The notes under the pieces: model-generated
What the model saw: the letters and a program-made list of their open reading frames with translations, nothing else
Told to the model about the DNA's origin: nothing
Databases searched by the model: none
Position numbers and translations under genes: made by a program
Assembly: GCA_043814055.1 (NCBI GenBank)
Contig: JBDRKL010000009.1
Span: forward strand, 1-64,000
Origin: an archaeon
Lineage (GTDB): Archaea > Undinarchaeota > Undinarchaeia > Undinarchaeales > JBDRKL01
Reading direction: 5' to 3'
Length of the DNA stretch: 64,000 bases
Part shown: piece after piece, positions 27,261-58,229 of the stretch
How the letters are laid out: each line of letters begins with the position of its first letter
How positions within the stretch are numbered: position 1 is the first letter of the stretch

Positions 27261-27619
27261 TCTCCGGCTGCTCCCGGAGGGTGAGCGGAGGCATTCGCAT
27301 CCGGCGAAGCCGCTTTATTATCTCCTTTTTCCTTAGGCGCACCTTCGTGCGCTGCTTCTTTTTCCCTGACTGAGGTGCCTTCTGCTTTTAACATCCCTTT
27401 CTTTGCCTTTGCCGGCAGAACTTTCTTTGCTTCTGGCTTGAACTCCTCAACTTTCTCAATCTTTATTTGAGCTCGCTTTATCCCGTGATTTGAGCCAACC
27501 AATGAATAGACCTTGTCAAGCGCGCGTGCTTCTTTAAGTTCGGTAACTTCCTTGGTAAAAATCTGCTTATTTCCACGCTGTACAAAACTTCCTATGATTC
27601 TAAAATGTTTAACACTCAT
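27257..27619 (-). CDS. rpl18a: 50S ribosomal protein eL20 (LX/L18Ae) with C-terminal extension
   Basis: FTKEV..ALDKVYSLVGSNHGIKRAQIKI. Confidence 0.9.
   Translation of the reverse strand: MSVKHFRIIGSFVQRGNKQIFTKEVTELKEARALDKVYSLVGSNHGIKRAQIKIEKVEEFKPEAKKVLPAKAKKGMLKAEGTSVREKEAAHEGAPKEKGDNKAASPDANASAHPPGAAGE
27262..27311 (-). repeat. Family A element forming the eL20 C-terminus
   Basis: GGCTTCGCCGGATGCGAATGCC-TCCGCTCAC-CCTCCGGGAGCAGCCGGAG encodes ASPDANASAHPPGAAG. Confidence 0.85.
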
Positions 27620-27696
27620 TTTGAATTTTCCTCCACTTCATCAGCTTTAAAATAAACACGAAGCTGATTGACCTGCGTTATTGCTTTGCGTCTCAT
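27616..27696 (-). repeat. Family C element / 26-aa bridging mini-ORF between eL31 and eL20
   Basis: ATGAGACGCAAAGCA..CAGCTTCGTGTTTATTTTAAAGCTG..GGAGG..AAATGA; TGA overlaps the eL20 ATG. Confidence 0.8.
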
Positions 27697-27701
27697 TATA
27701 T

Positions 27702-28241
27702 TTACCTGAGCTTGATCACTGCTCTGCCGTTTTCATCTTCGCCAATCACAACTCGAAGCTGATATGGCGGTTTCTTGCGGCCGCGCTCCCAGATTTTCTC
27801 GTTTACTTCCTTTGTGATTACGACTTTGTCCGCCTTGGTGTGCTTCTTTGCGAACGCCTTGAGCATAGAAATTGTGTATCGCGCTTTCTTGCCCCTTACT
27901 GCGTTATTCCTAAGCGGGATTGTGTAAAGGTGGTCAGTGCCCTTGAGCCTGGTTGGCTTGACATTCTTCGGCGCAGCCTTGGATTCCTTGAGCTCGCTGA
28001 TGGTGTCCATTGCGCGCTCCACAACCGTGCCCTTCTTCTTTGGCTGCGGCTTTGCCTTTGCCTCTTTCTTATCCTTGACTGCTGGCTCTTCCTTTGAGGC
28101 AGCCTTTGGCTTAGCCTTCTCTTCTTCTGCCGCTGCAGACTGACGCTTCGCGTCAGTTGCACGCTTGACTTCGTCAAGCTGTGCCTCTGCCTGAGCTTCT
28201 TTCAGAATTTCATCTTCTACACTTGCTTTATCTTTAGCCAT
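27702..28241 (-). CDS. rpl31e: 50S ribosomal protein eL31 with a long K/A/E-rich N-terminal extension
   Basis: YTIPLR..VNEKIWERGRKKPP. Confidence 0.9.
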   Translation of the reverse strand: MAKDKASVEDEILKEAQAEAQLDEVKRATDAKRQSAAAEEEKAKPKAASKEEPAVKDKKEAKAKPQPKKKGTVVERAMDTISELKESKAAPKNVKPTRLKGTDHLYTIPLRNNAVRGKKARYTISMLKAFAKKHTKADKVVITKEVNEKIWERGRKKPPYQLRVVIGEDENGRAVIKLR

Positions 28242-28242
28242 T

Positions 28243-28362
28243 TCAAAGTCTCCTAATCTTCATCTGCTTTGAAACTTCGGACGCGGGGCGTCCGAGGCAC
28301 ACACACTTCGTGTGTGATGTGCAGACGAAGCTGAAATTATTTAACATGCTTTGTCTCGTCAT
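28243..28362 (-). repeat. Family C element with two extra internal hairpins / 39-aa bridging mini-ORF
   Basis: ATGACGAGACAAAGCA..CAGCTTCGTC[hairpins]TTTCAAAG..AGGAGACTTTGA-A-ATG. Confidence 0.75.
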
Positions 28363-28364
28363 GA

Positions 28365-28520
28365 TTATTCACCGATGTCTGACGCGCGCCAGTACCTTCT
28401 TTGTGGATGCGTCCTAACCTTGCGGTTGGTCTTCATTATCACCCACAGTGGAACTATCCTGTTCTGTCGCCCTTTCTTGGCGAGGCGCGTTTTTGTTGAT
28501 ATGTGTTTTATTGAACTCAT
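28365..28520 (-). CDS. rpl39e: 50S ribosomal protein eL39 (not in the ORF track)
   Basis: [51 protein letters not shown]. Confidence 0.93.
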
Positions 28521-29125
28521 TTTTTGTACCCTTTTACTATTGTATGATAATGGTTCTCTGGGAATATATCCTTTTCCAAGCCATCTCCGCGAGCCCTGAG
28601 TGTGGCGCGTATCTCAGTTTCATACTCAGAAGTCGGTATAGAACCTGCCTGGACTGACTCTGTTAAGAAGATAGCGTCGGTTAAATACTTTATGGTCTTG
28701 TATGAAAGCCCGCAAAGAATTGGGCTGTATTCTATTTTGTGCCTGTCCTCCAGGGACTGCATTTCCGCAAGGGTTAGGCGCGGGGTTTTGTCATCCCGGC
28801 GCGTGCCATCGGTTATCAGCTTGTACGTGTCCTTATATTTTGCGCAAATTCCTTCCAAAGCGGCATGGTGTGCAATGTTTATCGCGTTGAGCGGGAACCC
28901 GTCCTTCTGCGCCTGGTCTGCTGCTTCCTCAATTGTTTTTGAATCAAGCGTGATTGGCTCAAATGGGAAACCGATTGACTCCGCTGCTTTCTGCGCGGTT
29001 TCAATGCACTCCGGCATTACCCCGAAGTTCGCCGTGACTAAAAGGACTTCGTATCCCCATTGCTTCAGGAAGTGCGCAACGAGCGAGGAGTCCTTGCCGC
29101 CTGAGTAGAGGACTATTGCTTTCAT
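28517..29125 (-). CDS. PP-loop ATPase-family protein of the archaeal eS19-eL39 cluster
   Basis: [23 protein letters not shown]. Confidence 0.85.
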
Positions 29126-29457
29126 ACCCGCCTAATCTTAAACTCCCTATGCGTTTGACTTGAAACTGCACCCAGAACTATCTTGAGCTGCTCAAGAGTG
29201 ATTTTGCCCTTGATTTGCCCGGATTCAACCGCTTTCACAAGAGTTATCGCAGCTGCGTAGGCGTTGTTCTCGTTGGCCATCCGCGCAGTGCTCCATTGCG
29301 CCCAGGCTTCCTGTGTCAAAATCTGCCTTAGAACCTGCTGAACTTGCTTCTTTGCATTTGTCTCAGCCTGGTGCATTTGAGCCTCTTGCTCCTGCTCCTG
29401 CTGGAGCTCAGCCATCTTACGCTGCCTAATTGCCTCAAGTTCTGCGTCGTCGTTCAT
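29122..29457 (-). CDS. PDCD5/TFAR19-family DNA-binding protein
   Basis: ELEAIRQRKMAEL..LRQILTQEA..EFKIRR. Confidence 0.88.
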   Translation of the reverse strand: MNDDAELEAIRQRKMAELQQEQEQEAQMHQAETNAKKQVQQVLRQILTQEAWAQWSTARMANENNAYAAAITLVKAVESGQIKGKITLEQLKIVLGAVSSQTHREFKIRRV

Positions 29458-29466
29458 GAGAATAAG

Positions 29467-30051
29467 TTACTTCTTTTCCGATTTTGCCGCTGCCGGCTTT
29501 GACTCTTCTTTCTTTCCTTCGGCTTTTGGCTGATGGGACTTTGCCCTCTGCTCTTGCTTGAACTTTTCATGACCAGGGAGTGCTATCTTCTCCTTTCTCG
29601 GAGCTTCCTTATAAACCGCCTCTTTCTTTACTTTCGGCGTTTTGTAAACCACATAAGCCACATTGTCCAAGAGCTTCTGCCCCTGCGGGGTGATGCTCCT
29701 GCCTTTCTTGGAGTTTTTCACGTAGCCTGCGAGCTCAAGCTGCTTCATAAGCGCCCTGATAATTGAGCCTGACGCTTTTCTGTGCTCTTCCGGCTTTACC
29801 CCGCGGTTCCTTGCCCCGCCGTATTCTGTCCTTAGCCTTGAAACACCAACAGGACCTCTTACGTAAATCTTGCGCAGCATTGAAGCGGCGCGGATATACC
29901 AAAAGTCCGGCTGCTCAGGCGGCCTCTCGCAGTGCGCTCCGCTCTTGGCGAACTGCGCCCACTCCGGCGGCTTTATCTGCTCGTTCTTCTTCAGCTCTTC
30001 TTTTACCGCATTGATTAAGTCCAATGCGTCAACATCGTTTACATTTACCAT
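29467..30051 (-). CDS. rps19e: 30S ribosomal protein eS19
   Basis: PPEWAQFAKSG..WYIRAASMLRK..GSIIR..QLE. Confidence 0.96.
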   Translation of the reverse strand: MVNVNDVDALDLINAVKEELKKNEQIKPPEWAQFAKSGAHCERPPEQPDFWYIRAASMLRKIYVRGPVGVSRLRTEYGGARNRGVKPEEHRKASGSIIRALMKQLELAGYVKNSKKGRSITPQGQKLLDNVAYVVYKTPKVKKEAVYKEAPRKEKIALPGHEKFKQEQRAKSHQPKAEGKKEESKPAAAKSEKK

Positions 30052-30124
30052 TTTTATTCCTGTAACCCTAATTAACTGGAAATCGTGCTTTATGAAATGG
30101 GTTAAGTAATATATAAAAGCATCT

Positions 30125-30688
30125 TTGAATAATCAAACAAAGATGGAGATTAAGAAGTTTAGTAAAAAAGGCATAGAGAAGCGTTTTGCTAAACTTTCAG
30201 AGGATTACATAAAATTTCTCAAAGAAGCCGGGGAATTCACGAATAAATTTAACGCAAAGGAGAGCATACGGGACTCAAGCGTCATTTTTGCAGCGTATTG
30301 GTTTGGTGACATAATTGGGTGGGTTACTTTAATAGAGAAAGACAGTCCATTATATGAAAGATACTATGCGGAAGTCAAAGCGGAAAAGTTTCTCCCTAAG
30401 AAAGATATTGCATTTGGAGCGGACCTTTTAGTCCATCCAAAACACAGAGAAGGGAAATTGGAGATAGAACTCTATCAAAAACACGTCAAGGATGCCATAA
30501 AGAGAAATCTTGTTTTTGTTGATATTGTAAATTTTGACAAAGTTGAAATGTACACTAAAGCAGTGAATGAGAAAGACATGACTCTGGATTATACAGGGTT
30601 AGTATCAAATAGGAGCATTTTAAAAGAGGAAGAAGTGCTTATTTGCATAAAGAAGAAGATTAAACGAAAAAGAAAGAAGCGGAAATAA
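30125..30688 (+). CDS. Hypothetical AT-rich protein, possible GNAT fold
   Basis: LLVHPKHREGK resembles GNAT motif A. Confidence 0.5.
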   Translation: MNNQTKMEIKKFSKKGIEKRFAKLSEDYIKFLKEAGEFTNKFNAKESIRDSSVIFAAYWFGDIIGWVTLIEKDSPLYERYYAEVKAEKFLPKKDIAFGADLLVHPKHREGKLEIELYQKHVKDAIKRNLVFVDIVNFDKVEMYTKAVNEKDMTLDYTGLVSNRSILKEEEVLICIKKKIKRKRKKRK

Positions 30689-30997
30689 TTATTTCTTATA
30701 CGGAATCCGCATTACTTCACCGCATTCCTCGCAGTGAATTACAAGATGAGGGAAGCGGTTTTGGTTCAGCCTGACCTTGCAGTTCTTGCCCATTTTCAGG
30801 TACGCGTGGCAGTGCTTGCAGTATTTGCGCTTGTATTCCTTTGAGATTCGCACGCGGTATTTCATCCCGATTTTTCTTGCCAGCTCAACATAGCGGTTGG
30901 CGTGCTCTGAGCTTCCCTCAGCTTCCTTGAATAAAATTTCAATCCGCTCAGCTGCGATAGACTTCTGCGCAGGGGATTTCTTGAATCTTCGTTTCAT
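30689..30997 (-). CDS. rnp4: RNase P protein Rpp21
   Basis: IAAERIEIL..RYVELARKI..CKHC..CEECG..RIPY. Confidence 0.93.
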   Translation of the reverse strand: MKRRFKKSPAQKSIAAERIEILFKEAEGSSEHANRYVELARKIGMKYRVRISKEYKRKYCKHCHAYLKMGKNCKVRLNQNRFPHLVIHCEECGEVMRIPYKK

Positions 30998-30998
30998 C

Positions 30999-31229
30999 TC
31001 AGGAGTTCGCAACAGCCATCAGGTCGCGCTCTTGCTTGGTGACTTTCTTCCAGCACTTCTTGCAGTAGCGCTCGTTCTTCCACTGGCGCGAGCAGGACTT
31101 GTGCATTGGTTTTTCGCAGTTTTTGCACACGAGGTCCGGGTTTGCTCCTGCGCAGGTCACGCAATTTGAGCTTTCGCTCGGCTGTTCAGATTCCTCTGCT
31201 TCTTTTTTCTTGAATAGGTTTAGAGCCAT
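30999..31229 (-). CDS. Small zinc-finger protein
   Basis: CxxC, CxxC, HxxC, CxxC pattern. Confidence 0.65.
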   Translation of the reverse strand: MALNLFKKKEAEESEQPSESSNCVTCAGANPDLVCKNCEKPMHKSCSRQWKNERYCKKCWKKVTKQERDLMAVANS

Positions 31230-31323
31230 AAGATAGAATAGATTAGCAGGATATTAAAGCTTAGCATTGAGCGCCCGATAGAAAACATATAAATCACCTA
31301 ATAGAAAAGAACCAGAGGTTAAA

Positions 31324-31608
31324 ATGAAAGTAAAAGAACTAATGGACAGAATCCCTGTGGACGAGATAACGCTGAAGATAACTGACAAGCAGGAGCCGCG
31401 CAAAATACCAGGCAAAACGCTCACGGTCTGCGAGTGCACAGGCGAGGACGACACAGGCAAGGTTATAGTGACGCTTTGGAACGACGAGATTCGCCTGATT
31501 GACATAGATGACACTGTAAAAATCACCAAGGGCTGGGCGTCCAGGTATGATGACGAGTTAACGGTTTCAGCCGGCAAGTTTGGGAAGATTGAAGTTGTGG
31601 ATGAGTAG
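31324..31608 (+). CDS. Single OB-fold ssDNA-binding protein, paralog 2
   Basis: Highly similar to 12169..12492 (VDEITLKIT, CTGEDDTG, ITKGWA, GKFGKIEV). Confidence 0.88.
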   Translation: MKVKELMDRIPVDEITLKITDKQEPRKIPGKTLTVCECTGEDDTGKVIVTLWNDEIRLIDIDDTVKITKGWASRYDDELTVSAGKFGKIEVVDE

Positions 31609-31697
31609 AGAAAAGATATTAAAAAAATAAACCCACAATAGTTAAGAAAAGTATAAAAGAACAGCAATAAATAAACAGATAAGGGGTAGGCAAAAGA

Positions 31698-32519
31698 ATG
31701 ATGGAATCATACTACGAAAAACCAGGATTTAAGCTATATCACTCGGATTCGTTTGAACTTTTGAAGGATTTGCCAGAGAATTCTGTAGATATGATTTTTG
31801 CCGATCCACCATATTTCCTTTCAAACGGCAGTTTCACATGTCAAAATGGAAAAATGGTTAGCGTAAAGAAAGGAAATTGGGACATGGGCAATGGCACAAA
31901 ACAAGATTTTGATTTTCATTTGGATTGGCTAAACGCTTGCAGGAGAGTCCTAAAGCCAAATGGAACAATTTGGATTAGCGGAACATACCACTCAATTTAC
32001 CAGTGCGGCTTTGCACTACAAATGAATAATTTCCACATTTTGAATGATATTGCCTGGTTTAAGCCTAACGCCTCACCTAATTTGAGCTGCAGATTCTTTA
32101 CCGCTAGCCACGAAACCCTAATTTGGGCTCGCAAGAATAAGGAAGCAAAGCACACTTTTAATTATGATATTACTAAAACCGGAAACTGGCCTGAAGACCA
32201 GTTAAAAAAAGAGGGGTTACAGATGCGCTCTGTTTGGTCAATACCAACGCCCAAGCCACAGGAGAAAACCTTCGGCAAACACCCAACGCAAAAGTCATTG
32301 GATCTGCTGAGAAGAATTGTATTAGCAAGCACTAACAAGGGCGATTTGATTCTTGATCCTTTTACAGGAAGCTCCACAACAGGTCTGGCTGCCCATATGT
32401 ATGGAAGGGATTTTATTGGAATTGACAATGAACAAAAATATCTAGATCTATCCATTAAACGCTTTGAAGAACTGGAAAATAATCTAAAAAAAGAGAAAAC
32501 CACCGGCGGTTTGATATGA
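31698..32519 (+). CDS. Beta-class adenine DNA methyltransferase (DpnA/MboIB-like)
   Basis: IFADPPYFLSNG, ISGTYH, HPTQK, LDPFTGSSTTG. Confidence 0.9.
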   Translation: MMESYYEKPGFKLYHSDSFELLKDLPENSVDMIFADPPYFLSNGSFTCQNGKMVSVKKGNWDMGNGTKQDFDFHLDWLNACRRVLKPNGTIWISGTYHSIYQCGFALQMNNFHILNDIAWFKPNASPNLSCRFFTASHETLIWARKNKEAKHTFNYDITKTGNWPEDQLKKEGLQMRSVWSIPTPKPQEKTFGKHPTQKSLDLLRRIVLASTNKGDLILDPFTGSSTTGLAAHMYGRDFIGIDNEQKYLDLSIKRFEELENNLKKEKTTGGLI

Positions 32520-33433
32520 AAAAAATTGAATTTTATGAAAAGACGCTAAAATGCAACACAGCGGATGAAGTTTTTAACCACATTATTTCAACTTTTAAAC
32601 CAAGCATACTTACATGGTCTTATTTTGTGAATTGGGATAAGGTTTTTCAGAACACGAAAGATATTGAGATAGGGCTTAACAAACTAAATTATCTAATCGG
32701 CAAAGAGGATTTTGATAAAGAATTCAGATATCTAATAAAAAAAGAGGCAGAGCTTCTAAAAATCATTCCAGCACTGGTTGTGAGGGATGGTCAGAACACT
32801 TTAAAATTCAAAATTTTGGTTGATTACAGTCAAAAAAAGATGGTGTATGAAGAATATGACTTTAACAAAGATACTTTAACAGACGAGAATATTGAAAAGT
32901 GCCTGACTTTTGTTAAGGAAACTGGCTTGAAAAAATTGATTACCTCCGGAAGTATCAAAAATTTAGTGGATTATATGATTGGGGTTGAGGCAGGATTGGA
33001 CAGCAATGGACGAAAAAACCGTTCCGGCAGTGCAATGGAAAACATTGTTGAAATGTTCATAAAAGACATTTGCAACAGGAAGAACTTCAGATATTTAAGG
33101 CAGGCAGATGCAAAAAAGATCAAAGAAGAGTTTGGATACGATGTCCCGGTTGACAAGTCATCAAGAAGGTATGATTTTGTAATTGACACTGGAAAAGAGC
33201 TTGTCCTTTTTGAAACAAACTTTTACGGCGGCGGTGGCTCAAAACTAAAATCAACAGCAGGCGAGTACAGAAATCTGTTTGACATACTTGAAGACAAATA
33301 CAAATTTATTTGGATTACAGACGGACTTGGCTGGAAAACAACTCAAAAACCGTTGCGAGAAACATTTGAGCATAATGATTATCTGTTTAATTTGGATATG
33401 CTGGAAAAAAAGGTATTAGATGTAGTGTTGTAG
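32516..33433 (+). CDS. DpnII/MboI-family type II restriction endonuclease
   Basis: GVEAGLDSNGRKNRSG..ME, YDFVI, ETNFYGGGGSKL, WITDGLGW. Confidence 0.9.
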   Translation: MKKIEFYEKTLKCNTADEVFNHIISTFKPSILTWSYFVNWDKVFQNTKDIEIGLNKLNYLIGKEDFDKEFRYLIKKEAELLKIIPALVVRDGQNTLKFKILVDYSQKKMVYEEYDFNKDTLTDENIEKCLTFVKETGLKKLITSGSIKNLVDYMIGVEAGLDSNGRKNRSGSAMENIVEMFIKDICNRKNFRYLRQADAKKIKEEFGYDVPVDKSSRRYDFVIDTGKELVLFETNFYGGGGSKLKSTAGEYRNLFDILEDKYKFIWITDGLGWKTTQKPLRETFEHNDYLFNLDMLEKKVLDVVL

Positions 33434-33444
33434 GAGAGTAAGAG

Positions 33445-33516
33445 TGGACCCGGCCCGGATTGAACGGGCGACCTCTGCCATGTGAGGGCAGTGTCATACC
33501 ACTAGACCACGGGTCC
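33445..33516 (-). tRNA. tRNA-Val(CAC)
   Basis: GGACCCG/CGGGTCC acceptor, CTGCC-CTCACAT-GGCAG anticodon arm; CCA not encoded. Confidence 0.93.
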
Positions 33517-33544
33517 AACGGCATACAAATCAGCTAGAATCTAT

Positions 33545-34111
33545 TTAAACCTTAGTTAGCTCAGCAAAATTCTTAAAAATCTCCGCCCCGTGCTCTGTGT
33601 GCTGGACTTCAGGGTGGAATTGCACGCCGAATATTGGTTTTGACACGTGCCTGATTGCCTCGTAGGGGCAGTCCTTTGAATGCGCCAGAGCCTTGAGCTG
33701 GTCAGAGATTGCGGTTACTTCGTCATTGTGCGAGTTCCATACCTTTATTGTGCTCGGCAGGCCTTTGAAGAGCTCGTCGGGCTCGTCGATTATTAGTTCT
33801 GTAATGCCGTACTCAGGAGTTCCCGCGGGTTTTGCCTCCCCGCCGAAGTGCTTTGCGATTAACTGGTGTCCTGCGCACATGCCGAGTATTGGGCCGTTGA
33901 ACTTGTCCAGGTATAACTCGCAGTTGCCCATGCCGAATTCTTCACCGCCGCCAACGCTCAACCCAGAGCCGGAGAACGCGACTGCATCCGCGCTGAGCTC
34001 TTCAATCGGAGTTGTGTTCGGCAGGATTTCGGAGTCGTACTCTAAGTCCTGAAAAGTGCGCATAATGCGATGCGTGTACTGCCCTCCGTTGTCGATAACT
34101 GCGATGTTCAT
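33545..34111 (-). CDS. guaAA: GMP synthase glutamine amidotransferase subunit A
   Basis: IDNGGQY, GMCAGHQ, VQFHPEV. Confidence 0.93.
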   Translation of the reverse strand: MNIAVIDNGGQYTHRIMRTFQDLEYDSEILPNTTPIEELSADAVAFSGSGLSVGGGEEFGMGNCELYLDKFNGPILGMCAGHQLIAKHFGGEAKPAGTPEYGITELIIDEPDELFKGLPSTIKVWNSHNDEVTAISDQLKALAHSKDCPYEAIRHVSKPIFGVQFHPEVQHTEHGAEIFKNFAELTKV

Positions 34112-34115
34112 TTTA

Positions 34116-35075
34116 TTATTCCCACTCAATAGTCCCCGGCGGCTTGTTCGTGATGTCATAAACCACGCGGTTCACGTCCTTCTTCAGCGTGTTCGTGATT
34201 CTTGTTGAAATACGCTCCATCAATTCAGGCGGAAACCTTGAAAAGTTCGCAGTCATCCCGTCCGCGCTCGCGACTGCGCGCAGGCCAATCACGTAGCCGT
34301 ATGTCCTCAAATCACCCTGCACCCCAACAGTCCGCACTGGAAGCAGAACCGCGAAGTACTGCCACGGTTCTTCAATCTCGCCGCGCTCTACTGCCTGTTT
34401 GATTTCATCTCGGTAAATATAATCTGCTTCCTGAAGAACTGCGGCTTTTTCAGGCGTAACCTCGCCCAAAATTCGTACTCCAAGCCCTGGACCTGGAAAT
34501 GGCTGTTTCTCGTAAAGCTCTTTCGGAACTCCGAGAGCTTCGCAGACCTGCCGCACCTCGTCCTTGTAAAGGTCGCGTAGCGGTTCTACGAGTTTAAGAT
34601 TCATTTTTTCAGGGAGTCCACCCACGTTGTGATGCGATTTAATATTGTCGCGCAGTCCACCCCCAGATTCAATCCAGTCAGGCGCGATTGTGCCTTGAAC
34701 TAAGTACTCAGCACCCACTGCTTTTGCCTTTTTCTCAAAAACTTCAATGAATTTGTTCCCGATAATCTTGCGCTTCTCTTCCGGCTCTGTTGCGCCCTTG
34801 AGCGCTGTGAAGAATAAATCTTTCTCATCCGCGAGCTCTGCGTTAACACCCATCATTTTGAGCGCTTCAACAACTTCAATGCTCTCGTTTTTCCTCATTA
34901 AGCCAGTGTCAACGTGAACTGCGTGCAATCTGTCACCAAGAGCTTTGGCGCACAATGCCGTGGCTGCTGTAGAATCAACCCCGCCTGAGACTGCGATTAT
35001 TGCCTTGCCTGGAGCTGGGATGTCCTGCTTGAGCTTGTTTATTGCTTTTTGAATAAATGCGTTTGGGTCTTTCAT
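34116..35075 (-). CDS. guaAB: GMP synthase ATPase subunit B
   Basis: SGGVDS, IKSHHNVGG, PFPGPGL, KPPGTIEWE. Confidence 0.96.
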   Translation of the reverse strand: MKDPNAFIQKAINKLKQDIPAPGKAIIAVSGGVDSTAATALCAKALGDRLHAVHVDTGLMRKNESIEVVEALKMMGVNAELADEKDLFFTALKGATEPEEKRKIIGNKFIEVFEKKAKAVGAEYLVQGTIAPDWIESGGGLRDNIKSHHNVGGLPEKMNLKLVEPLRDLYKDEVRQVCEALGVPKELYEKQPFPGPGLGVRILGEVTPEKAAVLQEADYIYRDEIKQAVERGEIEEPWQYFAVLLPVRTVGVQGDLRTYGYVIGLRAVASADGMTANFSRFPPELMERISTRITNTLKKDVNRVVYDITNKPPGTIEWE

Positions 35076-36064
35076 TAGTATACCGTGCCCTTGAACTTAA
35101 CGTGATTTCCGTTCACTGCCTTGCCCAAAATCATTGGCTGGTCTTTCTCAAGCAATCTGAGCGTTGGCTCAACATTACTCTCTGAAACCACTACGCAGAA
35201 GCCGATGCCCATGTTGAATGTCTTGTACATTTCGTCTTCAGGAATATTACCGCCGCGCTGGATTTTCTCAAATATCAGGTGCGGGTTGGGCCAGTTCTTT
35301 ACGTCAAAACCGATTTCCTTGTTTAATCTTTTCAGGTTCATCAGCCCACCACCGGTCATATGAGCCAATCCCTTTACCGGGACGTGGTTGAGCAGGTGGA
35401 GTATTTGTTTGACGTAAATCTTGGTTGGTGTCAAAAGTTCCGCGAGAATAGCTGTGTCATTCATGTCAAGAACTTTGCGCGCAAGCGTCAGCCCGTTTGA
35501 ATGAACCCCTGAGCTCTTCAGGCCGATGAGCACGTCGCCTTCCTTGATGTGCTCGCCTGTGATGACTTTGTCCTTGTCAATTATGCCGAGCGCGGTTCCT
35601 GCCAAATCATAGCCCTTGAGCATATCCGGCAGAGTCGCGGTTTCCCCGCCGATTACAGCAACCCCTGCCTGGTTCGCGCCGTCGCATATTCCGCGCATCA
35701 ATTGTTCAATTACAGCAGGCTCGTGCTTCTCCACCGCGAGATAGTCAACCATGGCAATTGGAGTTGCGCCAAGGCAGATTAAGTCGTTCACGTTCATCGC
35801 GACCATGTCTATGCCAACTGTGTCAAACTTGCCAAGCGCTTCAGCAACTAGCATTTTTGAGCCTACTCCGTCAGTGCACATCACAACTGCCTGGCCGTGG
35901 CCAACATCAACCAAATTAGCATAATGCCCCATTGAGGCCATCACCTTGTCAGGCTGGTTCTCAAAAGTGCTGGACAGCATCGCGGTTATCCTGCCGACTG
36001 AATCGTCCTCCTGTTTCCGGTCAACCCCTGCGTTCGCGTAGGTCCAGAAGTCGGTCAAAACCAA
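35075..36064 (-). CDS. purM: AIR synthetase
   Basis: [26 protein letters not shown]. Confidence 0.96.
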
Positions 36065-36660
36065 TCACCTCTTCGCTCTTTCTTTTTTGGCTTTGGCGCT
36101 TCTTCAGTTGTTGAGCTTTCCTCGCTTCCGAAAAAGCCTCCAATATTAACTGGCTCGTCAGGCTTTGTGGAGCGCATGAAATCTGGAACATAGTCCGCGC
36201 TTGAGCTGGTTGAGCTTTCGTAAGAACGAGGACTCTCGTCAGAGTCAGATGACCGCTCTCTGAGAACCTCAGGATACTTTATCGCGAGTATGCGTATTGC
36301 AAGATACGCTGCGTTCTTGCCGTTGTCAATGCCTACTGTTGCAGTCGGGACACCTGGAGGCATTTGAACAATTGACAAAAGCGCGTCAAGCCCGCCGAGC
36401 TTGGAATCAACAGGCACTCCGATTACAGGCTTCGCGGTCATTGAAGCAACAACACCCGGCAACGCAGCTGCGAGGCCAGCGATGCATATGAAAACATCAG
36501 ACTCAGCGCTTCGCACAATATCCTTGACCTTATCTGGGTTGCGGTGCGCGGACGCGACCTGAAGGTCGTAGGGGATTGAATACTTCTCAAGAACCTCAAC
36601 AGCTTTGTCAGCGATGTGCTTGTCGCTTTCAGAGCCCATTAGGATTGTTACGTGTTTCAT
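36055..36660 (-). CDS. purE: AIR carboxylase/N5-CAIR mutase with acidic Ser-rich tail
   Basis: [25 protein letters not shown]. Confidence 0.95.
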
Positions 36661-36691
36661 AGGTTAGTCTATGCCTCCGTACTTATTAATA

Positions 36692-38014
36692 TTATCCACG
36701 CAGCTCTTTCATATGGTCAATGCGCTTCTGCACCAGCTCTGGCTTGCCAATGTCAGGCCTGTAGAACAATTTGTCGCACTGCACGGATGAGATTGCAGAC
36801 TCTGCGATTTTCTCAGCTTCTTCAATCGTGTCTGCGAAGCCTGTGATTCCAAATGAGCGCGATGTGCTTGTGTAAAGCTCGCCATCTTTCAGGTCAACTG
36901 AGGCGTAGTAGAGCTTTGCGCCGAGCCGCGTGATTTCTTCCTCGTCAATTGAGACCTTTGCGCCTGACTCAGGGCTCTCAGGGTAGCCTGTTGGGACAAG
37001 GTACTTGCAGACCGAGGCAAGATTTTCAAACTCAATAACTTTTGGCAAACTACCCTCAAGCATTGACTGGCACAGGAAGCTGAAATCGGTCTTGAGTAAT
37101 GGGAGAATGTTCATCGCTTCCGGGTCGCCGAAGCGCACGTTGTATTCAATAATTTTTGGTCCGTCCTTTGTGAGCATAAACTGCCCGTAGAGAACGCCCT
37201 TGTAAATTGTTCCGGTTCTTTTCTTCAGCGCAGCGATTGTGCGCTTCATAATGTCAAGCGCTTCGTCAACATCTTTCTGCTCAAGAAAAGGCAATAGGTG
37301 ATTTGCGTCAGAGTATGAGCCCATTCCGCCTGTCATCGGTCCTGTGTCGCCCTCGTGCGCCTGCTTGTGGTCCTGCACAAGTGGAAGCGGAACAACTTCT
37401 GTGCCGTCTGTGAAAACATGGAGCGTGAACTCCTCCCCAACGAGTTTTTCCTCAATTACCACAACGCCTGAGCCGCCAATTTGGTTCTCAACAACCTCAA
37501 GCGCGTAGTCCCGCGCCTCATACAAGTCCCTGAGCTGCTGACCCATGACCTTGACGCCCTTGCCGCCGGTGAGCCCTGCGGGCTTGATGACTATTTCTGT
37601 GTCAAATTCCTGAATCGCTTTGAGAACATCCTCGCGGTTGGAGCACACGCGGAACTTGGGGTAGCCGCCGTCAAGATGCTCCTGCATCAGGTCGCGGCAG
37701 AACGCCTTGTCAGACTCAAGCCGGGCTGCAGCGCTTGTCGGACCAACCACGCCAAAGCCGTTCTTCTGCAATTCATCCCCAACGCCTTTAGCAAGCGGGT
37801 CCTCAGGGCCGATGAAAATGTAGTCAGGCTTCACGTGGAGCGCGTATTTCAAAACTGCTTTTGAATTATTAATGTCGCCGAGTTCGTGACCTTTTGCAAG
37901 CGCCATTATGCCAGGGTTGCGGGCCTTCATAAACGCGTAGAGCTCTGAGCCCTTTGCCATCTGCTCAGCAAGCGCGTGTTCACGCGCTCCGTTGCCTATT
38001 AGGAGGGATTTCAA
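36692..38014 (-). CDS. purD: GAR synthetase
   Basis: GNGAREHA, GPE, GGKGV, TGGMG, EYNVRFGDPE. Confidence 0.96.
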   Translation of the reverse strand: MKSLLIGNGAREHALAEQMAKGSELYAFMKARNPGIMALAKGHELGDINNSKAVLKYALHVKPDYIFIGPEDPLAKGVGDELQKNGFGVVGPTSAAARLESDKAFCRDLMQEHLDGGYPKFRVCSNREDVLKAIQEFDTEIVIKPAGLTGGKGVKVMGQQLRDLYEARDYALEVVENQIGGSGVVVIEEKLVGEEFTLHVFTDGTEVVPLPLVQDHKQAHEGDTGPMTGGMGSYSDANHLLPFLEQKDVDEALDIMKRTIAALKKRTGTIYKGVLYGQFMLTKDGPKIIEYNVRFGDPEAMNILPLLKTDFSFLCQSMLEGSLPKVIEFENLASVCKYLVPTGYPESPESGAKVSIDEEEITRLGAKLYYASVDLKDGELYTSTSRSFGITGFADTIEEAEKIAESAISSVQCDKLFYRPDIGKPELVQKRIDHMKELRG

Positions 38015-38085
38015 AGCTTCACCGCCCTTAACAGCTTTGAAATAAACGCGAAGCTGTATAACAAATTTCTTGCTTTGCGTTTCAC
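38011..38085 (-). repeat. Family C element / 24-aa bridging mini-ORF between purF and purD
   Basis: GTGAAACGCAAAGCA..CAGCTTCGCGTTTATTTCAAAGCT..AGCTTTGA; TGA overlaps the purD TTG. Confidence 0.8.
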
Positions 38086-38086
38086 T

Positions 38087-39532: not shown

Positions 39533-39577
39533 GCCATTTCTCCGTGTTGTATTTTGATTCGTGGGTTATATATGTTG

Positions 39578-45718: not shown

Positions 45719-45764
45719 AATTATTGATGGTCGAGGTTATATAAAAGGATTTCTTTGAGATAGG

Positions 45765-45814
45765 GGCTTCGCCGAAGGTGAATGCCCCAGCTTTACCTCC
45801 GCAAGCAGGCGGAG
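45765..45814 (+). repeat. Family A element, free intergenic copy
   Basis: GGCTTCGCCGAAGGTGAATGCC-CCAGCTTTA-CCTCCGCAAGCAGGCGGAG. Confidence 0.85.
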
Positions 45815-45825
45815 ATATAAAAGAC

Positions 45826-49854: not shown

Positions 49855-50034
49855 AAGCTATAAAAACTATAGCTTACATAGTTTTGTTGCATCCTTTCCG
49901 AAAGGGGAAGGGATGCTGTTCAAAAGTTAATTTCGCAAAACGGTGACCAAAGGCAACCAGATTGCTTTTGTAAGGTGGCTTCGCGAACGCAGTGAGCGAA
50001 TGCCGCCTAAAGTGTCAACTGCTTTTGCAGTTGT

Positions 50035-50123: not shown

Positions 50124-50130
50124 TACTCAC

Positions 50131-50697: not shown

Positions 50698-50845
50698 GGG
50701 CCCGTGGTCTAGTGGCTATGACGTCTCCCTTACAACCCTTTTGCTTCGCAAAAGCGTTGACGGAAAAGAAACCGTCTTCGCGGCGATTGGAGCACGAGGG
50801 AAAGAACGGAGAAGTTCACAGGTTCGACTCCTGTTGGGCCCACCA
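50698..50845 (+). tRNA. tRNA-Val(TAC) with a 72-nt intron (50735-50806)
   Basis: GGGCCCG/TGGGCCC acceptor, TCTCC/GGAGA anticodon stem, intron at 37/38 with relaxed bulge-helix-bulge, CCA. Confidence 0.9.
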
Positions 50846-50953: not shown

Positions 50954-50960
50954 TACTCAA

Positions 50961-51399: not shown

Positions 51400-51491
51400 A
51401 CAGTCCCGCGCCAAGAGCTTGATGCAGCGGGACTACCAGGCAAATTGAGCGCCACCATACTTTTATATAATTGGGAACAGAAGAATTACCC

Positions 51492-51765: not shown

Positions 51766-51766
51766 A

Positions 51767-51820
51767 CAAACTTTTTATTGATTATATTTGTGAAAAAAGC
51801 TTGACCAAAAAACTCGCTTC
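51767..51820 (+). repeat. Family B element at the SRP RNA 3' end
   Basis: CAAACTTTTTATT..AAAAAAGCTTGACCAAAAACTCGCTTC. Confidence 0.8.
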
Positions 51821-51881
51821 AGCACACAGCGCTTACGCGCCGTGTGTCTCTACATGCTTCGCATGTAGACCGCTCGGCAGT

Positions 51882-52781
51882 TTAAATTTCTTCCAAAGTC
51901 GCACAATACTTGCAAATTTTAGCAGGAGTTCTTTCTCCGCACTCTGGGCAGTTGTTCAATTTGGGATTGTCAAACTTGCCCTCAAGCAATGGCATAAGAT
52001 TGTTAACGCCCTTGAGAATCTGGAACTTTGTACCAGGGTGCGCTGCCTCTAATTCATTGAGCTTGTTCCTGATTGAGCAGCGCAGGGACTGCTGGACATA
52101 TGGGCACTCGTCGTTGTGGAATGGAAAACCCTGCACGATTGTGTACAACCCAATTTCCTTTTCAGGCACTTCGCGTAGCGGCTTCACGCGCGGCACATAG
52201 CCCTTTTGAGTTGGAGTTTTTGCACCAATGCGGGACATTCTTGCGAAGTCCCCGCGGAAATAATTCATCACTGTGCTCTGCACTTCATCGTCCAAATTGT
52301 GCCCTGTTGCGACAACATCAGCTTTTAATTCTTTCGCCGCGTTGTTCATGATTCGCCTGCGGATTACGCCGCAGTAGGTGCACGGAATTTTGTCGCCCTT
52401 CTTCGCAATCTGATCCATTGTCTTCCCGACTTCGTCCTTGAAATTGTAAATCACTGCAGGCACGTCAAGCTCTTCAAAATTCTTAATCGCGATTTTGACA
52501 CTTTCGTCACGGTAGCCCTTGATGCCCTCGTCAACCACAATGCCTGTGAGCCTGAGTGGCATTTGCTTTGCGAACTTGTGCATAAACCTGAGCAGTGTGA
52601 CTGAGTCCTTGCCGCCGGAGATGCCCATCACAACGTGGTCGTTGCGTTTGAAAAGTTTGTTCTTGCTGATGTTCTTTCTGATTCTGTCATCGGTCAATTT
52701 GATAAAATGGTCTGTGCAGAGCTTGCGATTCATATAGCGCAGGTAGGCCACGGCTTTCTTGGAACAGCGGTCGCATTTCAT
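51882..52781 (-). CDS. tRNA 2-thiolation enzyme TtuA/NcsA
   Basis: CDRC..C..H, SGGKDS, CTYCGV, TGHNLDD, CPECG..CKYC. Confidence 0.92.
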   Translation of the reverse strand: MKCDRCSKKAVAYLRYMNRKLCTDHFIKLTDDRIRKNISKNKLFKRNDHVVMGISGGKDSVTLLRFMHKFAKQMPLRLTGIVVDEGIKGYRDESVKIAIKNFEELDVPAVIYNFKDEVGKTMDQIAKKGDKIPCTYCGVIRRRIMNNAAKELKADVVATGHNLDDEVQSTVMNYFRGDFARMSRIGAKTPTQKGYVPRVKPLREVPEKEIGLYTIVQGFPFHNDECPYVQQSLRCSIRNKLNELEAAHPGTKFQILKGVNNLMPLLEGKFDNPKLNNCPECGERTPAKICKYCATLEEI

Positions 52782-52840
52782 CTCGAAGCACCTCCGCTTT
52801 GAGATGAGCCCGGTCTCAAATTGCAAGGTCTGGGCCTCAT
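52778..52840 (-). repeat. Divergent family C-like element / 20-aa bridging mini-ORF
   Basis: ATGAGGCCC..GGGCTCATCTCAAAGC-GGAGGT-GCTTCGAGATGA; same hairpin layout, TGA overlaps the downstream ATG. Confidence 0.6.
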
Positions 52841-52841
52841 T

Positions 52842-53042
52842 CTATCCCCCGCTCACCACTCGAATCAACTCAACCTCGTCGCCTGATTTGAGCTTTTCAA
52901 TTTCAATCGCTACTTCGCTGTTGCGCTTTACAACATAGGACTCCGAGCACTCGCCGAGCTCGTTGAATAAGTCAAGAATTGTAGAGTTTGGCTTGAGCTC
53001 AACGGTCTTGGATTTGCCAGGGAGTTTGACGCGGATTTTCAT
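52842..53042 (-). CDS. Ubiquitin-like sulfur carrier (SAMP/ThiS/MoaD family)
   Basis: 66 aa ending GDEVELIRVVSGG; adjacent to the TtuA-like gene. Confidence 0.9.
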   Translation of the reverse strand: MKIRVKLPGKSKTVELKPNSTILDLFNELGECSESYVVKRNSEVAIEIEKLKSGDEVELIRVVSGG

Positions 53043-54218: not shown

Positions 54219-54260
54219 GATAACACATATAAAAGAGGGCGCACACATATAATGATTGCT

Positions 54261-54677: not shown

Positions 54678-54743
54678 AGCCTGACCATCCCCGCAAAGTT
54701 TTAAAAGTTAAATTAGCTTAGCTTATAGCATAATCATAAATTT

Positions 54744-54844
54744 AGCCCCGTAGTGTAGCGGCCAAGCACTCCGGCCTTTGACCTGTGTTTGATAAAAACT
54801 CAGGAAGACAGCCGGTAACGGCAGTTCGAATCTGCCCGGGGCTA
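54744..54844 (+). tRNA. tRNA-Gln(TTG) with a 28-nt intron (54782-54809)
   Basis: AGCCCCG/CGGGGCT acceptor, CCGGC/GCCGG stem, canonical BHB (CTTT/GAAG helix), GTTCGAATC. Confidence 0.93.
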
Positions 54845-54845
54845 C

Positions 54846-56204: not shown

Positions 56205-56235
56205 ACTAAATACTCCACTTAGTTTTCAAACCTTA

Positions 56236-56847
56236 TTAATCCAATTCAACCCCAAACCCTTTCAAATCCTCTTTGAGCTTTTCTGAATTTTCAAACAAAA
56301 CCGCATTCATACCCAAAGATTTCGCAATATCAACAAACGCCTGAATATCGTCAATAAACAAAACCTCTTCTGGTTTAAGATTCAACTTGTCCAGCGCGAA
56401 TTTGAAAAACTCAGGGTTGTCCTTGGTCATCTTCGCGTCAACTGATGCAATGATTCCCTCTAGAAAATCAAACCAGCCCTGCTGAACCACGATGTCTTTG
56501 TGCTTCTGTATCGCGTTTGTGAGCGCGACAATTTTGTAATTCTTTTTGAGCTCAAGCGCGATTTCTTTAACCGACTCGTTCACCTTGACCATTTCAGCAT
56601 AGTTCCAAACGAAGATTGCCTTGAGCAAGTCCAAATTCACGTCCTTGCCCATGCGCTCGTTGAGCTTTTTCAAGAACTCTGTGCCGCTCATCTCGCCCCT
56701 GCACGCAGGGAGCGATTCCATGTTTATTATTTTCCAGAACTCAGGCTTGCCCTCTCCCTTTACCCCGTAGAACTCCGCGGCTTTTTCAAGAATCGGGCGC
56801 ATGTCAAGCAATACACCGCCGATATCAAACATAATTGTAGTAATCAT
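56236..56847 (-). CDS. HAD-family phosphatase
   Basis: FDIGGVL, LTN, K, FIDD motifs. Confidence 0.9.
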   Translation of the reverse strand: MITTIMFDIGGVLLDMRPILEKAAEFYGVKGEGKPEFWKIINMESLPACRGEMSGTEFLKKLNERMGKDVNLDLLKAIFVWNYAEMVKVNESVKEIALELKKNYKIVALTNAIQKHKDIVVQQGWFDFLEGIIASVDAKMTKDNPEFFKFALDKLNLKPEEVLFIDDIQAFVDIAKSLGMNAVLFENSEKLKEDLKGFGVELD

Positions 56848-58019
56848 TTAAACCCCAGGAGAATGTCCCGCGCGGTCTTTCCAACCTTTTTCAAATTTTC
56901 CTCCTTGCAGTAAACTCCAACATTCCAGTAGGCCCATTGCTCGTCCTTGAGCGACTTGAGCAGGAGCGACACATCCGTGAGCTTTACAGGCTTGCCCTTC
57001 TGCATTATGGTTGCCTCAGCCTCTTTTGGGTAGAGTGGCGGCGGAATGTCCAGGAGAACTTCGCCATCAGCCAACCCGCAGGTGTCTGTGAGCTCAATCT
57101 CAAGCGCGCGGAGCTTTTTTGACGTCAGGCTGATGAGCTTTTTGGGCGGTATTCCAAAATCAGAAATCTCCAGCACTGCGGCGCGCTTGTAGAGCCGCCT
57201 TGATTCTATTCGCTCTATCATTTCGTTGTCAAGCGACCTGAGCTTTGCGATTATACCAATGTCGTCCATTGCATAGAGCTCATCAACTGTGAATAAATTC
57301 TCGCGCAGGCAGGAAAGCACTGCGCTCGTGAACATTGAGTTTATTATACGCACTGTGTGATGCTCGTAGACATTCGGGTACATCAAGTACCTGCCCTGCA
57401 CAAGCGACTCAGCTGCGGAGAGTCCGCCCTCTGCAAGCACTAGCTTGCGGTTGTAGAGCTTCAAGACGCTGAGCAGGCGGTCAATGTCAATCATCCCGTA
57501 CGCAGCGCCTGTGTAATATGAATCGCGAACAAGATAGTCCATCCGGTCTATGTCAATCTCACCAGAAAGGATTTCGCCGAGCTGGGTTTCTCCAGATACA
57601 ATTTTTGCAATCTCGTCCGGCTTGAAACCGAGCTTTTTTATTAAATCCGCGAGCCTGCTCTTTTTTATCAGGTTAATGGTTTTCCCCTCGTGCTTGCCCT
57701 CGTCTCCGATATGCGCCTTTATGACATCCTCTGAAGTATGCGAAAGCGGGCCGTGGCCAACGTCGTGCAGGAGAGCGGCGAGCTTTATTTTCTCAGCAGC
57801 GTCCGTTTCAAGCTCAATGTTTTCCGCGAGCCTGCCCGCAAGATAGAAAGTTCCAAGAGAATGCTCAAAGCGGGTGTGCGTCGCTGTTGGGTAAACAAGG
57901 TATGTGAACCCGAGCTGCTTGATGTTCCGAAGGCGCTGCATCTGAGGCGAGTCCAGCATTTCAATCTCACCATCTGAGACTTTTATGTTGCCATGCACTG
58001 CGTCGCGTATCGTTTTCAT
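56844..58019 (-). CDS. HD-domain phosphohydrolase (SAMHD1/YwfO-like)
   Basis: QRLRNIKQLG, HTRFEHSLG, LLHDVGHGP, DIDRMDYLVRD. Confidence 0.92.
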   Translation of the reverse strand: MKTIRDAVHGNIKVSDGEIEMLDSPQMQRLRNIKQLGFTYLVYPTATHTRFEHSLGTFYLAGRLAENIELETDAAEKIKLAALLHDVGHGPLSHTSEDVIKAHIGDEGKHEGKTINLIKKSRLADLIKKLGFKPDEIAKIVSGETQLGEILSGEIDIDRMDYLVRDSYYTGAAYGMIDIDRLLSVLKLYNRKLVLAEGGLSAAESLVQGRYLMYPNVYEHHTVRIINSMFTSAVLSCLRENLFTVDELYAMDDIGIIAKLRSLDNEMIERIESRRLYKRAAVLEISDFGIPPKKLISLTSKKLRALEIELTDTCGLADGEVLLDIPPPLYPKEAEATIMQKGKPVKLTDVSLLLKSLKDEQWAYWNVGVYCKEENLKKVGKTARDILLGFK

Positions 58020-58150
58020 GGTAAAAAGTAGTGTATTTGCTTATTTATACCCTCCTAGAAAAACAAAAAGCTTAAAAACAATCAAGTATAGACATACTGC
58101 GTTAGGACACTTTTTCTCAAAGTTAGTCCACTGAGCGGGAGAATAATCAA

Positions 58151-58229
58151 ATGGCACAACAAAGCCTGACAAGGCACACCAGCTTTGTGTGGATTTCAAA
58201 GCTGGATAAAAAGGAGGAACTTTGAAATG
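58151..58229 (+). repeat. Family C element / 24-aa upstream mini-ORF before the PPIase
   Basis: ATGGCACAACAAAGC..CAGCTTTGTGTGGATTTCAAAGCTG..GGAGGAACTTTGA-A-ATG. Confidence 0.8.

Follow-up and report, generated by a model that had tools for sequence, protein, structure and literature searches.

Background

In Neisseria and on Borrelia plasmids, the repeats REP2 and IR stand directly upstream of many open reading frames (ORFs) and carry a promoter, a ribosome binding site (RBS) and an ATG; they have two stem-loops but lack terminal inverted repeats (PMC3184786). Here we describe an archaeal repeat family that was noticed in a stretch of 64,000 nucleotides (positions 1 to 64,000 of JBDRKL010000009.1; 'the window' in the following), which is contig 9 of an assembly of 979,685 bp in 14 contigs that is 82% complete. 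A typical unit of this family starts with an ATG, has two hairpins (P1 and P3) as well as a Shine-Dalgarno (SD) site, and ends on the start codon of a gene, which is reached from the first ATG by a short ORF (mini-ORF). Like REP2 and the Borrelia repeats, the element is dispersed, lies directly upstream of unrelated ORFs, supplies RBS and ATG, and has two internal stem-loops but no terminal inverted repeats. REP2 differs in having a promoter and a co-regulated gene set, whereas the element here is archaeal and mostly located inside operons; 21 of 31 loci are within 10 nt of a co-directional ORF, which argues against the need for a promoter. The element also differs from REP2 in starting with a second, apparently ancestral start codon, and in the mini-ORF that bridges both starts by stop-start overlap. 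The first-pass annotation, made from the letters of the window, had not recognised the element as a described family: this is correct for its sequence, but the kind of element has a bacterial analogue in REP2 and the Borrelia IR repeats (PMC3184786).

A review on MITEs (miniature inverted-repeat transposable elements) covers the MITE Chunjie, which is tolerated in operons, and the Rickettsia palindromic elements, which are inserted in frame; the words 'start codon' and 'ribosom', searched for in this review, do not occur (PMC10969869). The element shares with MITEs its small size, its multiple copies, the absence of a transposase gene, the hairpins and the existence of filled and empty sites, and some MITE inserts likewise keep host genes working. 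Unlike MITEs, it lacks clear terminal inverted repeats and apparently has matches of varying length in place of a fixed-length target duplication, and the search of the 82% complete assembly for a cognate transposase was negative; it is also distinguished by a strict sense orientation, by exact registration with the start codon and by a separate ORF that ends at the gene start and is not fused into the protein. REP/RAYT systems and palindromes derived from IS200/IS605 differ in being associated with a Y1 (RAYT/TnpA) transposase, which was not found here. Searches of the literature for MITEs or repeats in connection with translational coupling, start codons, the Shine-Dalgarno sequence, archaea or DPANN yielded no description of a repeat with a bridging ORF.

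Leader-peptide attenuators of the trp or erm type consist of a leader ORF and segments that can pair 1:2, 2:3 and 3:4, with the start region in 3:4. The element resembles them in having a leader ORF and four segments able to pair, but its 2:3 pairing has no covariation support, its ORF is read in two frames, has no evident control codons and spans the whole structure. In the synthetic bicistronic design (BCD), the SD of the gene lies inside the leader cistron and the stop codon of the leader abuts the gene start. In both BCD and the element, the gene is preceded by a short leader cistron that has an SD of its own; BCD (bioRxiv 10.1101/2023.02.09.527918, PMC5995908) is engineered and bacterial, whereas the element is natural, archaeal, present in about 30 copies and equipped with hairpins. 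Termination-reinitiation couples overlapping stop-start pairs in archaea as well as in bacteria (PMC6728339), and in Haloferax and E. coli an intergenic distance of about 20 nt almost abolishes this coupling (PMC10666635). The element has the ATGA or 1 nt stop-start geometry of such pairs at both ends of the mini-ORF, but the coupled partner is a repeated, inserted mini-ORF rather than a gene, and coupling is deduced from the geometry.

The element is a dispersed, non-autonomous repeat that carries translation signals, a kind that is already known; new are the start-codon registration, the ancestral start that it appears to retain, the stop-start bridging ORF and the archaeal host. We suggest, with a probability of about 0.6, that it is a lineage-specific, non-autonomous copy-and-paste repeat that inserts at start codons and bridges translational coupling with its mini-ORF.

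A repeat family in sense orientation at gene starts

The genome was searched with a profile hidden Markov model built from 11 seeds (nhmmer) and with a covariance model, R1, made from a 24-copy alignment with the structure P1+P3. Both searches place the element at 30 gene starts, in 32 units, with tandem units at two loci (C10 34926-35065 and C7 65142-65288). A further three divergent sites share the architecture: the TtuA site of the window, C4 23510-23593 and C7 111909-111985. Besides the sense copies, the 40 matches of R1 comprise split matches, where a copy holds a nested insert, and antisense echoes of low score at these loci. A dispersed family with a core motif had been proposed from the window, and when its sites were read on both strands, the sequences, hairpin arms and mini-ORFs were as described; the core CAAAGC-N8-30-CAGCTTYG occurs five times in the window, compared with 0.14 expected from 100 shuffles. 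Of the six copies then listed, five are recovered by R1, including the degenerate tfb copy (E 4.7e-8), while the TtuA copy is unmatched at E<=1 and resembles the family in architecture only.

Relative to the downstream gene, all 30 copies of the genome-wide scan are in sense orientation, in line with the association with start codons that the first-pass annotation had proposed. The last three bases of the unit are the ATG of the gene in 27 of these 30; in two (purD and a helix-turn-helix regulator) the start is a TTG inside CTTTGAAAT, and at tfb the unit ends 5 nt short of the gene ATG. Pfam matches were obtained for 28 of 31 downstream proteins scanned, many of them from residue 1-10. The host genes include EF-2, Top6B, Top6A, both halves of transketolase, PyrI, eS28, NDK, Spt4, RpoP, SBDS, two Mrp-type subunits, a ferredoxin, an ABC ATPase and ribosomal proteins: a functionally unrelated housekeeping set with no common pathway. 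Many of the junctions join subunits of one complex (Top6B/A, TktN/C, PyrB/I, Mrp).

Rfam, searched at gathering score across the whole window, identified only the signal recognition particle (SRP) RNA and five tRNAs and left the element unmatched. At E<=1 the element was also unmatched in 27500-28450 and 58100-58280, which hold three of the six copies; the sole match in these stretches is to the unrelated CRISPR-DR20 (E 0.08), inside the eL31 gene. In one metatranscriptome run, five short contigs of the genome fall within 20001-40000 of the window, and the element sites lie outside all five.

Units are 65-80 nt long and reach about 140 nt where nested or tandem parts are present. The consensus is ATG-AG-ACRCAAAGC-(loop 3-16 nt)-AGCTTYGYGT-n3-ATTTCAAAGCTGrTGAAAnnGGAGGnAACTTTGAA-ATG. 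Hairpin P1 lies directly 3' of the 5' ATG; the loop of P3 holds the SD (GGAGG or GGTGA, 7-12 nt upstream of the gene start), and its 3' arm, CTTTGAAAT(G), reaches the start codon. The arms of P3 and the beginning of its loop (GCTGrTGAAA) are nearly invariant, whereas the loops of P1 have diverged. The ends of the unit, ATGAGACRCAAAGC... and ...CTTTGAAATG, have only the 5 nt core CAAAG/CTTTG in common and do not form terminal inverted repeats; the inverted repeats are internal (P1 and P3). The sole ORF inside the unit has 20-46 codons, and there is no transposase gene.

Two other readings of parts of the unit were considered and rejected. As judged by eye, the CTGATGA in the P3 loop is not a k-turn or C/D box, since the positions of the GA differ from copy to copy. 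A T/A-rich stretch, which reads TTTATTTC in several copies, lies between P1 and P3 and includes the first part of the P3 5' arm, but as a promoter it is not conserved (GCATTTC, GGATTTC and TGATTCC in other copies).

Units are lineage-specific insertions

R1 was searched against 40 other archaeal genomes, against 12 from the same order (at E<=1) and against 16 others from the phylum; in this comparison set, the genome is the sole member of its family. There is one weak match outside this genome, in relative G011 (40.9 bits, E 5e-5), compared with 53-93 bits for uninterrupted sense copies here. Apart from it, nothing better than E 0.02 was found in the 12 genomes of the order, and nothing in the 16 of the phylum.

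Orthologous junctions were compared between this genome and its relatives, and all five are empty of the element elsewhere. The Top6B/Top6A junction is empty in 9 of 9 relatives whose locus includes it, with the two genes overlapping as TAATG or up to about 11 nt apart. PyrB and PyrI overlap as ATGA in 10 of 12 relatives and have a 1 nt gap in one and a different insert of 191 nt in another (G005). Between uS7 and EF-2, gaps of 1-7 nt are found in 9 of 11 relatives, one has a different upstream region and one a different insert of 93 nt (again G005). TktN and TktC overlap as ATGA in 3 of 10 relatives, with varying arrangements in the others, and none of 10 relatives has the element in front of FKBP. 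In this genome, the unit comes immediately after the conserved C-terminus and stop codon of the upstream gene, as in ...ggtggaggtaaaATGA|cgacacaaagc...ctttgaa|ATGAgcgaa here versus ...ggtggaaccATGAgcagt in a relative. This filled-versus-empty comparison, which had been proposed together with the family, indicates lineage-specific insertion by copy-and-paste.

The boundaries of the unit are defined by a pair of copies in front of a thiamine pyrophosphate (TPP)-enzyme (PorB-like) gene on contig 10 and spt4 on contig 11. They are identical at 131 of 133 positions and contain the same nested 54 nt hairpin; identity extends from (A)ATGAGAC to ATGGC and the flanks are unrelated, indicating that the mobile unit reaches from the 5' ATG to the gene ATG and was copied whole.

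The match in G011 (L022 1498-1584, minus strand) is a single leader with two hairpins, ATGGGGAAG..CTTTCCCAT and then CATTTAAAC..GTTTAAATG closing on the gene ATG. It precedes a membrane-protein-like ORF and is laid out as in the family, scoring 27.7 bits on the strand leading into the gene. BLAST found no second copy in that genome; homology is uncertain and the leader was not counted as a member. The pattern TTTCAAAGC-N14-20-CTTTGAAATG retrieved genome contigs of unrelated bacteria, and R1 weakly matches 1 of the 80 loci listed (E 0.0036); these are chance hits. A metagenome locus (L157), the only one retrieved with a 21-base pattern of fixed gap, has no P1 and scores 19.8 bits (E 0.015); it is not a member. 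A pattern scan of viral contigs and a blastn search of phages and plasmids with one copy gave no match.

Two junctions carry other insertions in relatives. The 93 and 191 nt inserts of G005 at uS7/EF-2 and PyrB/PyrI (L218 and L200) have common ends (GGGGAAATAAATT ... CTGAACCAATTTyACAGA) and internal palindromes but no bridging ORF, and look like a different lineage-specific junction repeat. At TktN/TktC, G009 (L184) and G001 (L185) have a zinc-ribbon-like ORF of about 30 codons with CxxC...CxxC, whose start overlaps the upstream stop (ATGA) and whose end falls at or beside the downstream start: an unrelated bridging mini-gene in the same place.

The 5' ATG as the probable ancestral start

Several features suggest that the 5' ATG of the unit is the ancestral start of the gene. 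An SD-like 4-mer is found 3-12 nt upstream of the 5' ATG in 22 of 27 copies, compared with a fraction of 0.15 for random ATGs of the genome. At 21 of 31 loci it is preceded by a co-directional ORF (at least 50 codons) whose end either overlaps it or lies up to 10 nt upstream, and the overlaps of the 5' end with the upstream stop are ATGA (8), TAATG (2) and ATAA (1, at tfb). The bases that follow the 5' ATG also resemble those that follow the gene ATG: the matched prefixes add up to 34 versus 19.3 on permutation, a sum reached by none of 20,000 permutations (n=25). Examples are ATGGCAC/ATGGCAC at EF-2, ATGGCAG/ATGGCAG at C12 84961, and ATGACA twice. In the 131/133-identical pair, only (A)ATG is common at the 5' side.

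Mini-ORFs bridge the unit

An ATG or GTG is present at the 5' end of 27 of the 31 loci examined, and 24 of these 27 have a mini-ORF that bridges the unit: its TGA ends 1 nt before the gene start in 13 and overlaps it as ATGA or TTGA (+4) in 11. In the other three, the stop lies 7 nt into the gene, 16 nt into the gene and, in the C7 tandem, after 5 codons. When the non-stem positions of each copy were shuffled, an open frame was expected in only 6.3 of 26 copies, confirming the excess of stop-to-start ORFs that had been suspected from the window. As the copies are paralogous and not independent, one copy was also taken for each ATG-to-ATG distance (12 distances, 59-137 nt), and the joint probability of their open frames is 4e-9. 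None of these 12 distances is a multiple of 3 ((2/3)^12 = 0.008), so that no bridging mini-ORF reads in the frame of the gene. The fourth base of the gene is an A in 11 of 13 copies whose frame needs it, but in 4 of 13 in the other frame (Fisher p=0.015). The peptides are poorly conserved and, as had been noted, come from different frames: there are two frame classes on the same nucleotides, and the peptide itself is therefore not the conserved feature.

The mini-ORF also stays open where a unit has been enlarged, in all four units with a nested insert and a 5' start (the eL31 copy and three copies with the 54 nt hairpin) and, over 46 codons, across both units of one tandem pair. The nested inserts are hairpin repeats of other families and lie between P1 and P3 of five units (window 28275-28326, C10 26419-26472, C11 6857-6910, C10 112075-112128 and C12 143485-143575); free copies of these repeats are found at C10 139290-139337, C12 9100-9153, C4 24812-24899 and C8 32471-32521.

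Two hairpins with compensatory changes

In the 24-copy alignment, 86.1% of the P1+P3 cells are paired, compared with 27-47% in slid controls, and 10 of 21 pairs are changed on both sides versus 3.8 in shuffles (reached by 0 of 500). The pairing-preserving changes claimed for the copies of the window are thus found in both hairpins across the family. RNAalifold independently recovers the same cores of P1 and P3. Single copies have private compensations in P1 (CAAACC/GGTTCG, CAAAAC/GTTTCG and CAAACTGC/GCAGTTCG) and in P3 (TGAAA/TTTCA at tfb, CGAAG/CTTCG at C4 23510). Compared with shuffled sequences, the folding energy has a mean z of -2.9 (31 copies, 40 shuffles each).

A competing pairing between CAGCTT and AAGCTG had also been suggested. 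This pairing, P2 (CCAGCTTTG with CAAAGCTGG), is possible because all four segments carry CAAAG/CTTTG, and it is the minimum-free-energy fold in some copies and in several as good as P1+P3 or better. However, its covariation does not exceed controls, being reached by 16 of 500 and 39 of 500 shuffles in two tests, and its number of pairs changed on both sides is reached by 273 of 500 and 451 of 500.

These data bear on the idea that the element is a cis-regulatory RNA leader, in which a bistable switch (P1+P3 versus P2) or a site for a protein or small RNA sets about 30 genes and copying has merely built the regulon. The near-invariance of the P3 arms and loop start next to the diverged P1 loops, the strength of the P2 fold in several copies and the rebuilding of P3 in the degenerate copies at tfb and C4 23510 would all suit such a leader. 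Nevertheless we regard it as unlikely: the P2 covariation stays within controls (39/500; 273/500 for pairs), the downstream genes are unrelated in function, there is no Rfam family, the element is not present in relatives, and a peptide read in two frames does not conserve regulatory codons.

Copies in the window

The coordinates of the six sites in the window are listed in Table 1. Pfam confirmed the identities of the downstream genes (Ribosomal_L18A, Ribosomal_L31e, GARS, TtuA_LIM_N/PP-loop, FKBP and TFIIB). As proposed initially, five of the six have a bridging ORF of 20-39 amino acids and tfb has none, and four of the mini-ORFs begin 1-5 nt past the stop of a co-directional upstream gene (5, 2, 1 and 1 nt). 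This stop is a TAA, 5 nt before the 5' ATG, at eL20, where P3 is weak (-1.5 kcal/mol), and a TGA, 1 nt before the GTG, at purD. At the TtuA-like site, P3 is formed by CATCTCAAAGC/GCTTCGAGATG and its loop carries GGAGGT. The minimum-free-energy fold of the FKBP copy is P2, pairing 58179-58187 with 58197-58205. In the tfb copy the 5' ATG is changed to ATA inside an ATAA that is still the upstream stop, and the rebuilt P3, TTATTTTGAAAT/ATTTCAAAATAA, stops 5 nt short of the start.

Table 1 Positions of the element and its parts at six gene starts of the window
Feature	Position	Strand	Remarks
eL20 (Ribosomal_L18A) copy	27616..27696	-	R1 E 2.4e-11
eL20 mini-ORF	ATG 27696-27694; TGA 27618-27616; gene ATG 27619-27617	-	26 codons; TGA overlaps gene ATG (ATGA)
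eL31 (Ribosomal_L31e) copy	28243..28362	-	R1 matches two halves separately
eL31 nested hairpin insert	28275-28326	-	between P1 and P3; mini-ORF open across insert
eL31 mini-ORF	ATG 28362-28360; gene ATG 28241-28239	-	39 codons; TGA 1 nt before gene ATG
purD copy	38011..38085	-	R1 E 2.7e-13; GARS_N matches from residue 1
purD mini-ORF	GTG 38085-38083; gene TTG 38014-38012	-	24 codons; TGA overlaps gene TTG (TTGA)
TtuA-like (TtuA_LIM_N/PP-loop) divergent look-alike	52778..52842	-	architecture only; R1 unmatched at E<=1
TtuA-like mini-ORF	ATG 52840-52838; gene ATG 52781-52779	-	20 codons; ATGA overlap with gene ATG
FKBP peptidyl-prolyl isomerase copy	58151..58229	+	R1 E 3.1e-11
FKBP 5' ATG	58151-58153	+	
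FKBP P1	58155-58165/58182-58191	+	
FKBP P3	58193-58201/58220-58228	+	
FKBP SD (GGAGG)	58213-58217	+	
FKBP mini-ORF TGA	58223-58225	+	24 amino acids
FKBP gene ATG	58227-58229	+	
tfb (TFIIB) degenerate copy	271..334; gene ATG 340-342	+	R1 E 4.7e-8

Two of the downstream proteins have N-terminal extensions. In eL31 (window 27705-28241, minus strand) a Lys/Glu/Ala-rich stretch of about 115 residues precedes the Pfam match, which covers residues 116-167 of 179, and in TFB (340-1404, plus strand) a Lys-rich stretch of about 55 residues lies ahead of the zinc ribbon.

A possible mechanism and its alternatives

The data are consistent with the following model, in which we infer translation of the mini-ORF, reinitiation and the mode of copying from sequence geometry. 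The unit would have been inserted exactly at a start codon, so that the old ATG keeps its old SD and often its old ATGA overlap, while the 3' end of the unit brings a new GGAGG/GGTGA site together with the ATG at which the gene now begins. Ribosomes would initiate at the old ATG, often arriving there from the upstream gene, and translate the mini-ORF, melting P1 and P3 on their way. They would then terminate on the start of the gene and reinitiate there, aided by the internal SD, which at 7-12 nt before the start may help reinitiation or permit some direct initiation. Without a bridge, an insert of 60-140 nt at an ATGA junction would be expected to break coupling; the mini-ORF could restore it by dividing the way into two short hops, one from the upstream gene onto the mini-ORF and one from there onto the gene. 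Given that a distance of about 20 nt nearly abolishes coupling in the organisms studied, a bridge across the insert would matter. Copying may use recombination at the ATG microhomology.

Several observations weigh against this model. Four of 31 loci have no 5' start: rpoP, dCMP deaminase and tfb, which all three read ATC or ATA there, and the ferredoxin locus; one tandem locus (C7) has an early stop. The genes at these loci presumably still work, which means that the bridge is not obligatory and that the internal SD may suffice. The copies are paralogues that have inherited the open frame from a master copy, and copy counts therefore overstate independence. The match after the ATG varies from 0 to 4 nt, unlike a classical target-site duplication of fixed length; recombination anchored at the ATG by microhomology would fit this better. 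No mobilising enzyme was found in the 82% complete assembly: it has no match to PF01797, PF01609, PF13358, PF00589 or PF00078 (a Y1 transposase, two DDE families, a tyrosine recombinase and a reverse transcriptase), with the Y1 family PF01797 matching 6 of 14 control genomes, and the sole match to PF07282 (TnpB-domain) is below the cut-off at 16.5 bits. Finally, P3 is only moderately stable (mean -6.6 kcal/mol), and a mean of +4.2 kcal/mol is needed to free its 3' arm together with the start, with a cost of <=0 in 4 of 19 copies. Of the start-sequestering hairpin that had been proposed, it holds that P3 reaches the start; on these energies, the start would be masked moderately rather than locked. 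In the stems, A.C/C.A cells, which are G.U on the opposite strand, are more frequent (42) than G.U cells of the sense strand (29), and the selected fold may be sense RNA, antisense RNA or single-stranded DNA.

The same mismatches (G.T on the other DNA strand) would also fit purely selfish or neutral hairpin DNA, whose hairpins serve mobilisation as folded DNA, whose SD and open frame reflect passive survivorship, and which leaves the gene to be read from the internal SD alone. Such DNA would accommodate the four loci without a 5' start, it would have company in the several other dispersed hairpin repeats of the genome, some of them nested in units, and the junction inserts of G005 do without a bridging ORF. 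Survivorship, however, would still amount to selecting for the bridge; that the frame matters to the host is shown by the excess of ORFs, the lack of in-frame lengths and the ATGA link, and the sense orientation of 30 of 30 copies with exact ATG registration needs targeting or function. We therefore consider this explanation improbable. A role at the level of DNA, as a promoter, operator palindrome or recombination site ahead of the genes, is more improbable still: the T/A-rich TTTATTTC in several copies and the near-palindromic hairpins (seen as weak antisense echoes of R1) would suit it, but the TATA-like stretch lacks conservation, about two thirds of the copies are found within operons right after the upstream stop, where a promoter is not needed, and the frame and stop geometry would be meaningless in DNA.

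Other repeats in the genome

A second dispersed family has two G+C-rich hairpins (CTCCGCCTGCTCGCGGAG...; GAGGCATTCGCC..GGCGAAGCCTC) and is found in the window at 26239-26299, 27262-27311, 45760-45815 and 49972-50010, and at about 15 more places in the genome. It appears to be intergenic and may be terminator-like or REP-like. A third repeat consists of a palindrome, CAAACTTTTT..AAAAAGTTTG, followed by ATCAAAAA (window 11395-11539 and 51767-51820; C8 32636-32728, C10 138478-138654 and C12 3809-3871); some copies adjoin tRNA genes and the SRP RNA, and it may be a common promoter or terminator module. At one contig end (C13 47429-47655), a repeat of 47 nt, GTAGCGGGGGATGG...GTTCCGCACC, returns with a period of 90 nt, and its reverse complement is present at another (C12 153163-153209), which looks like a CRISPR array split by assembly. 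Two tRNA matches of the window, at 50698-50842 (145 nt) and 54744-54844 (101 nt), have lengths that suggest intron-containing tRNA genes.

Implications

The repeat seems to have spread without switching genes off. If it is indeed a copy-and-paste repeat with a translational bridge, this bridge is what lets it enter the most tightly constrained places of a streamlined genome, where stop and start codons overlap in essential operons. A more far-reaching version, which we put forward tentatively, is that of a new class of mobile element that is 'translation-neutral' and homes in on start codons. Placed between the ancestral ATG and the gene, it would restore the start and bring along a coupling cassette (mini-ORF, SD and start-closing hairpin), as a natural bicistronic design that could colonise even the tightly coupled ATGA junctions of essential operons in a minimal archaeal genome, maybe by ATG-anchored microhomology and without a dedicated transposase.

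With this family, the few repeats known to carry both RBS and start codon gain an archaeal example. For annotation, it means that gene callers may pick the wrong ATG or miss the mini-ORFs. Should the proposed bridging be true, the element would be a natural counterpart to engineered bicistronic translation elements, and its approximately 30 natural variants, in two frames and with or without a 5' start, would offer a test bed for termination-reinitiation in archaea.

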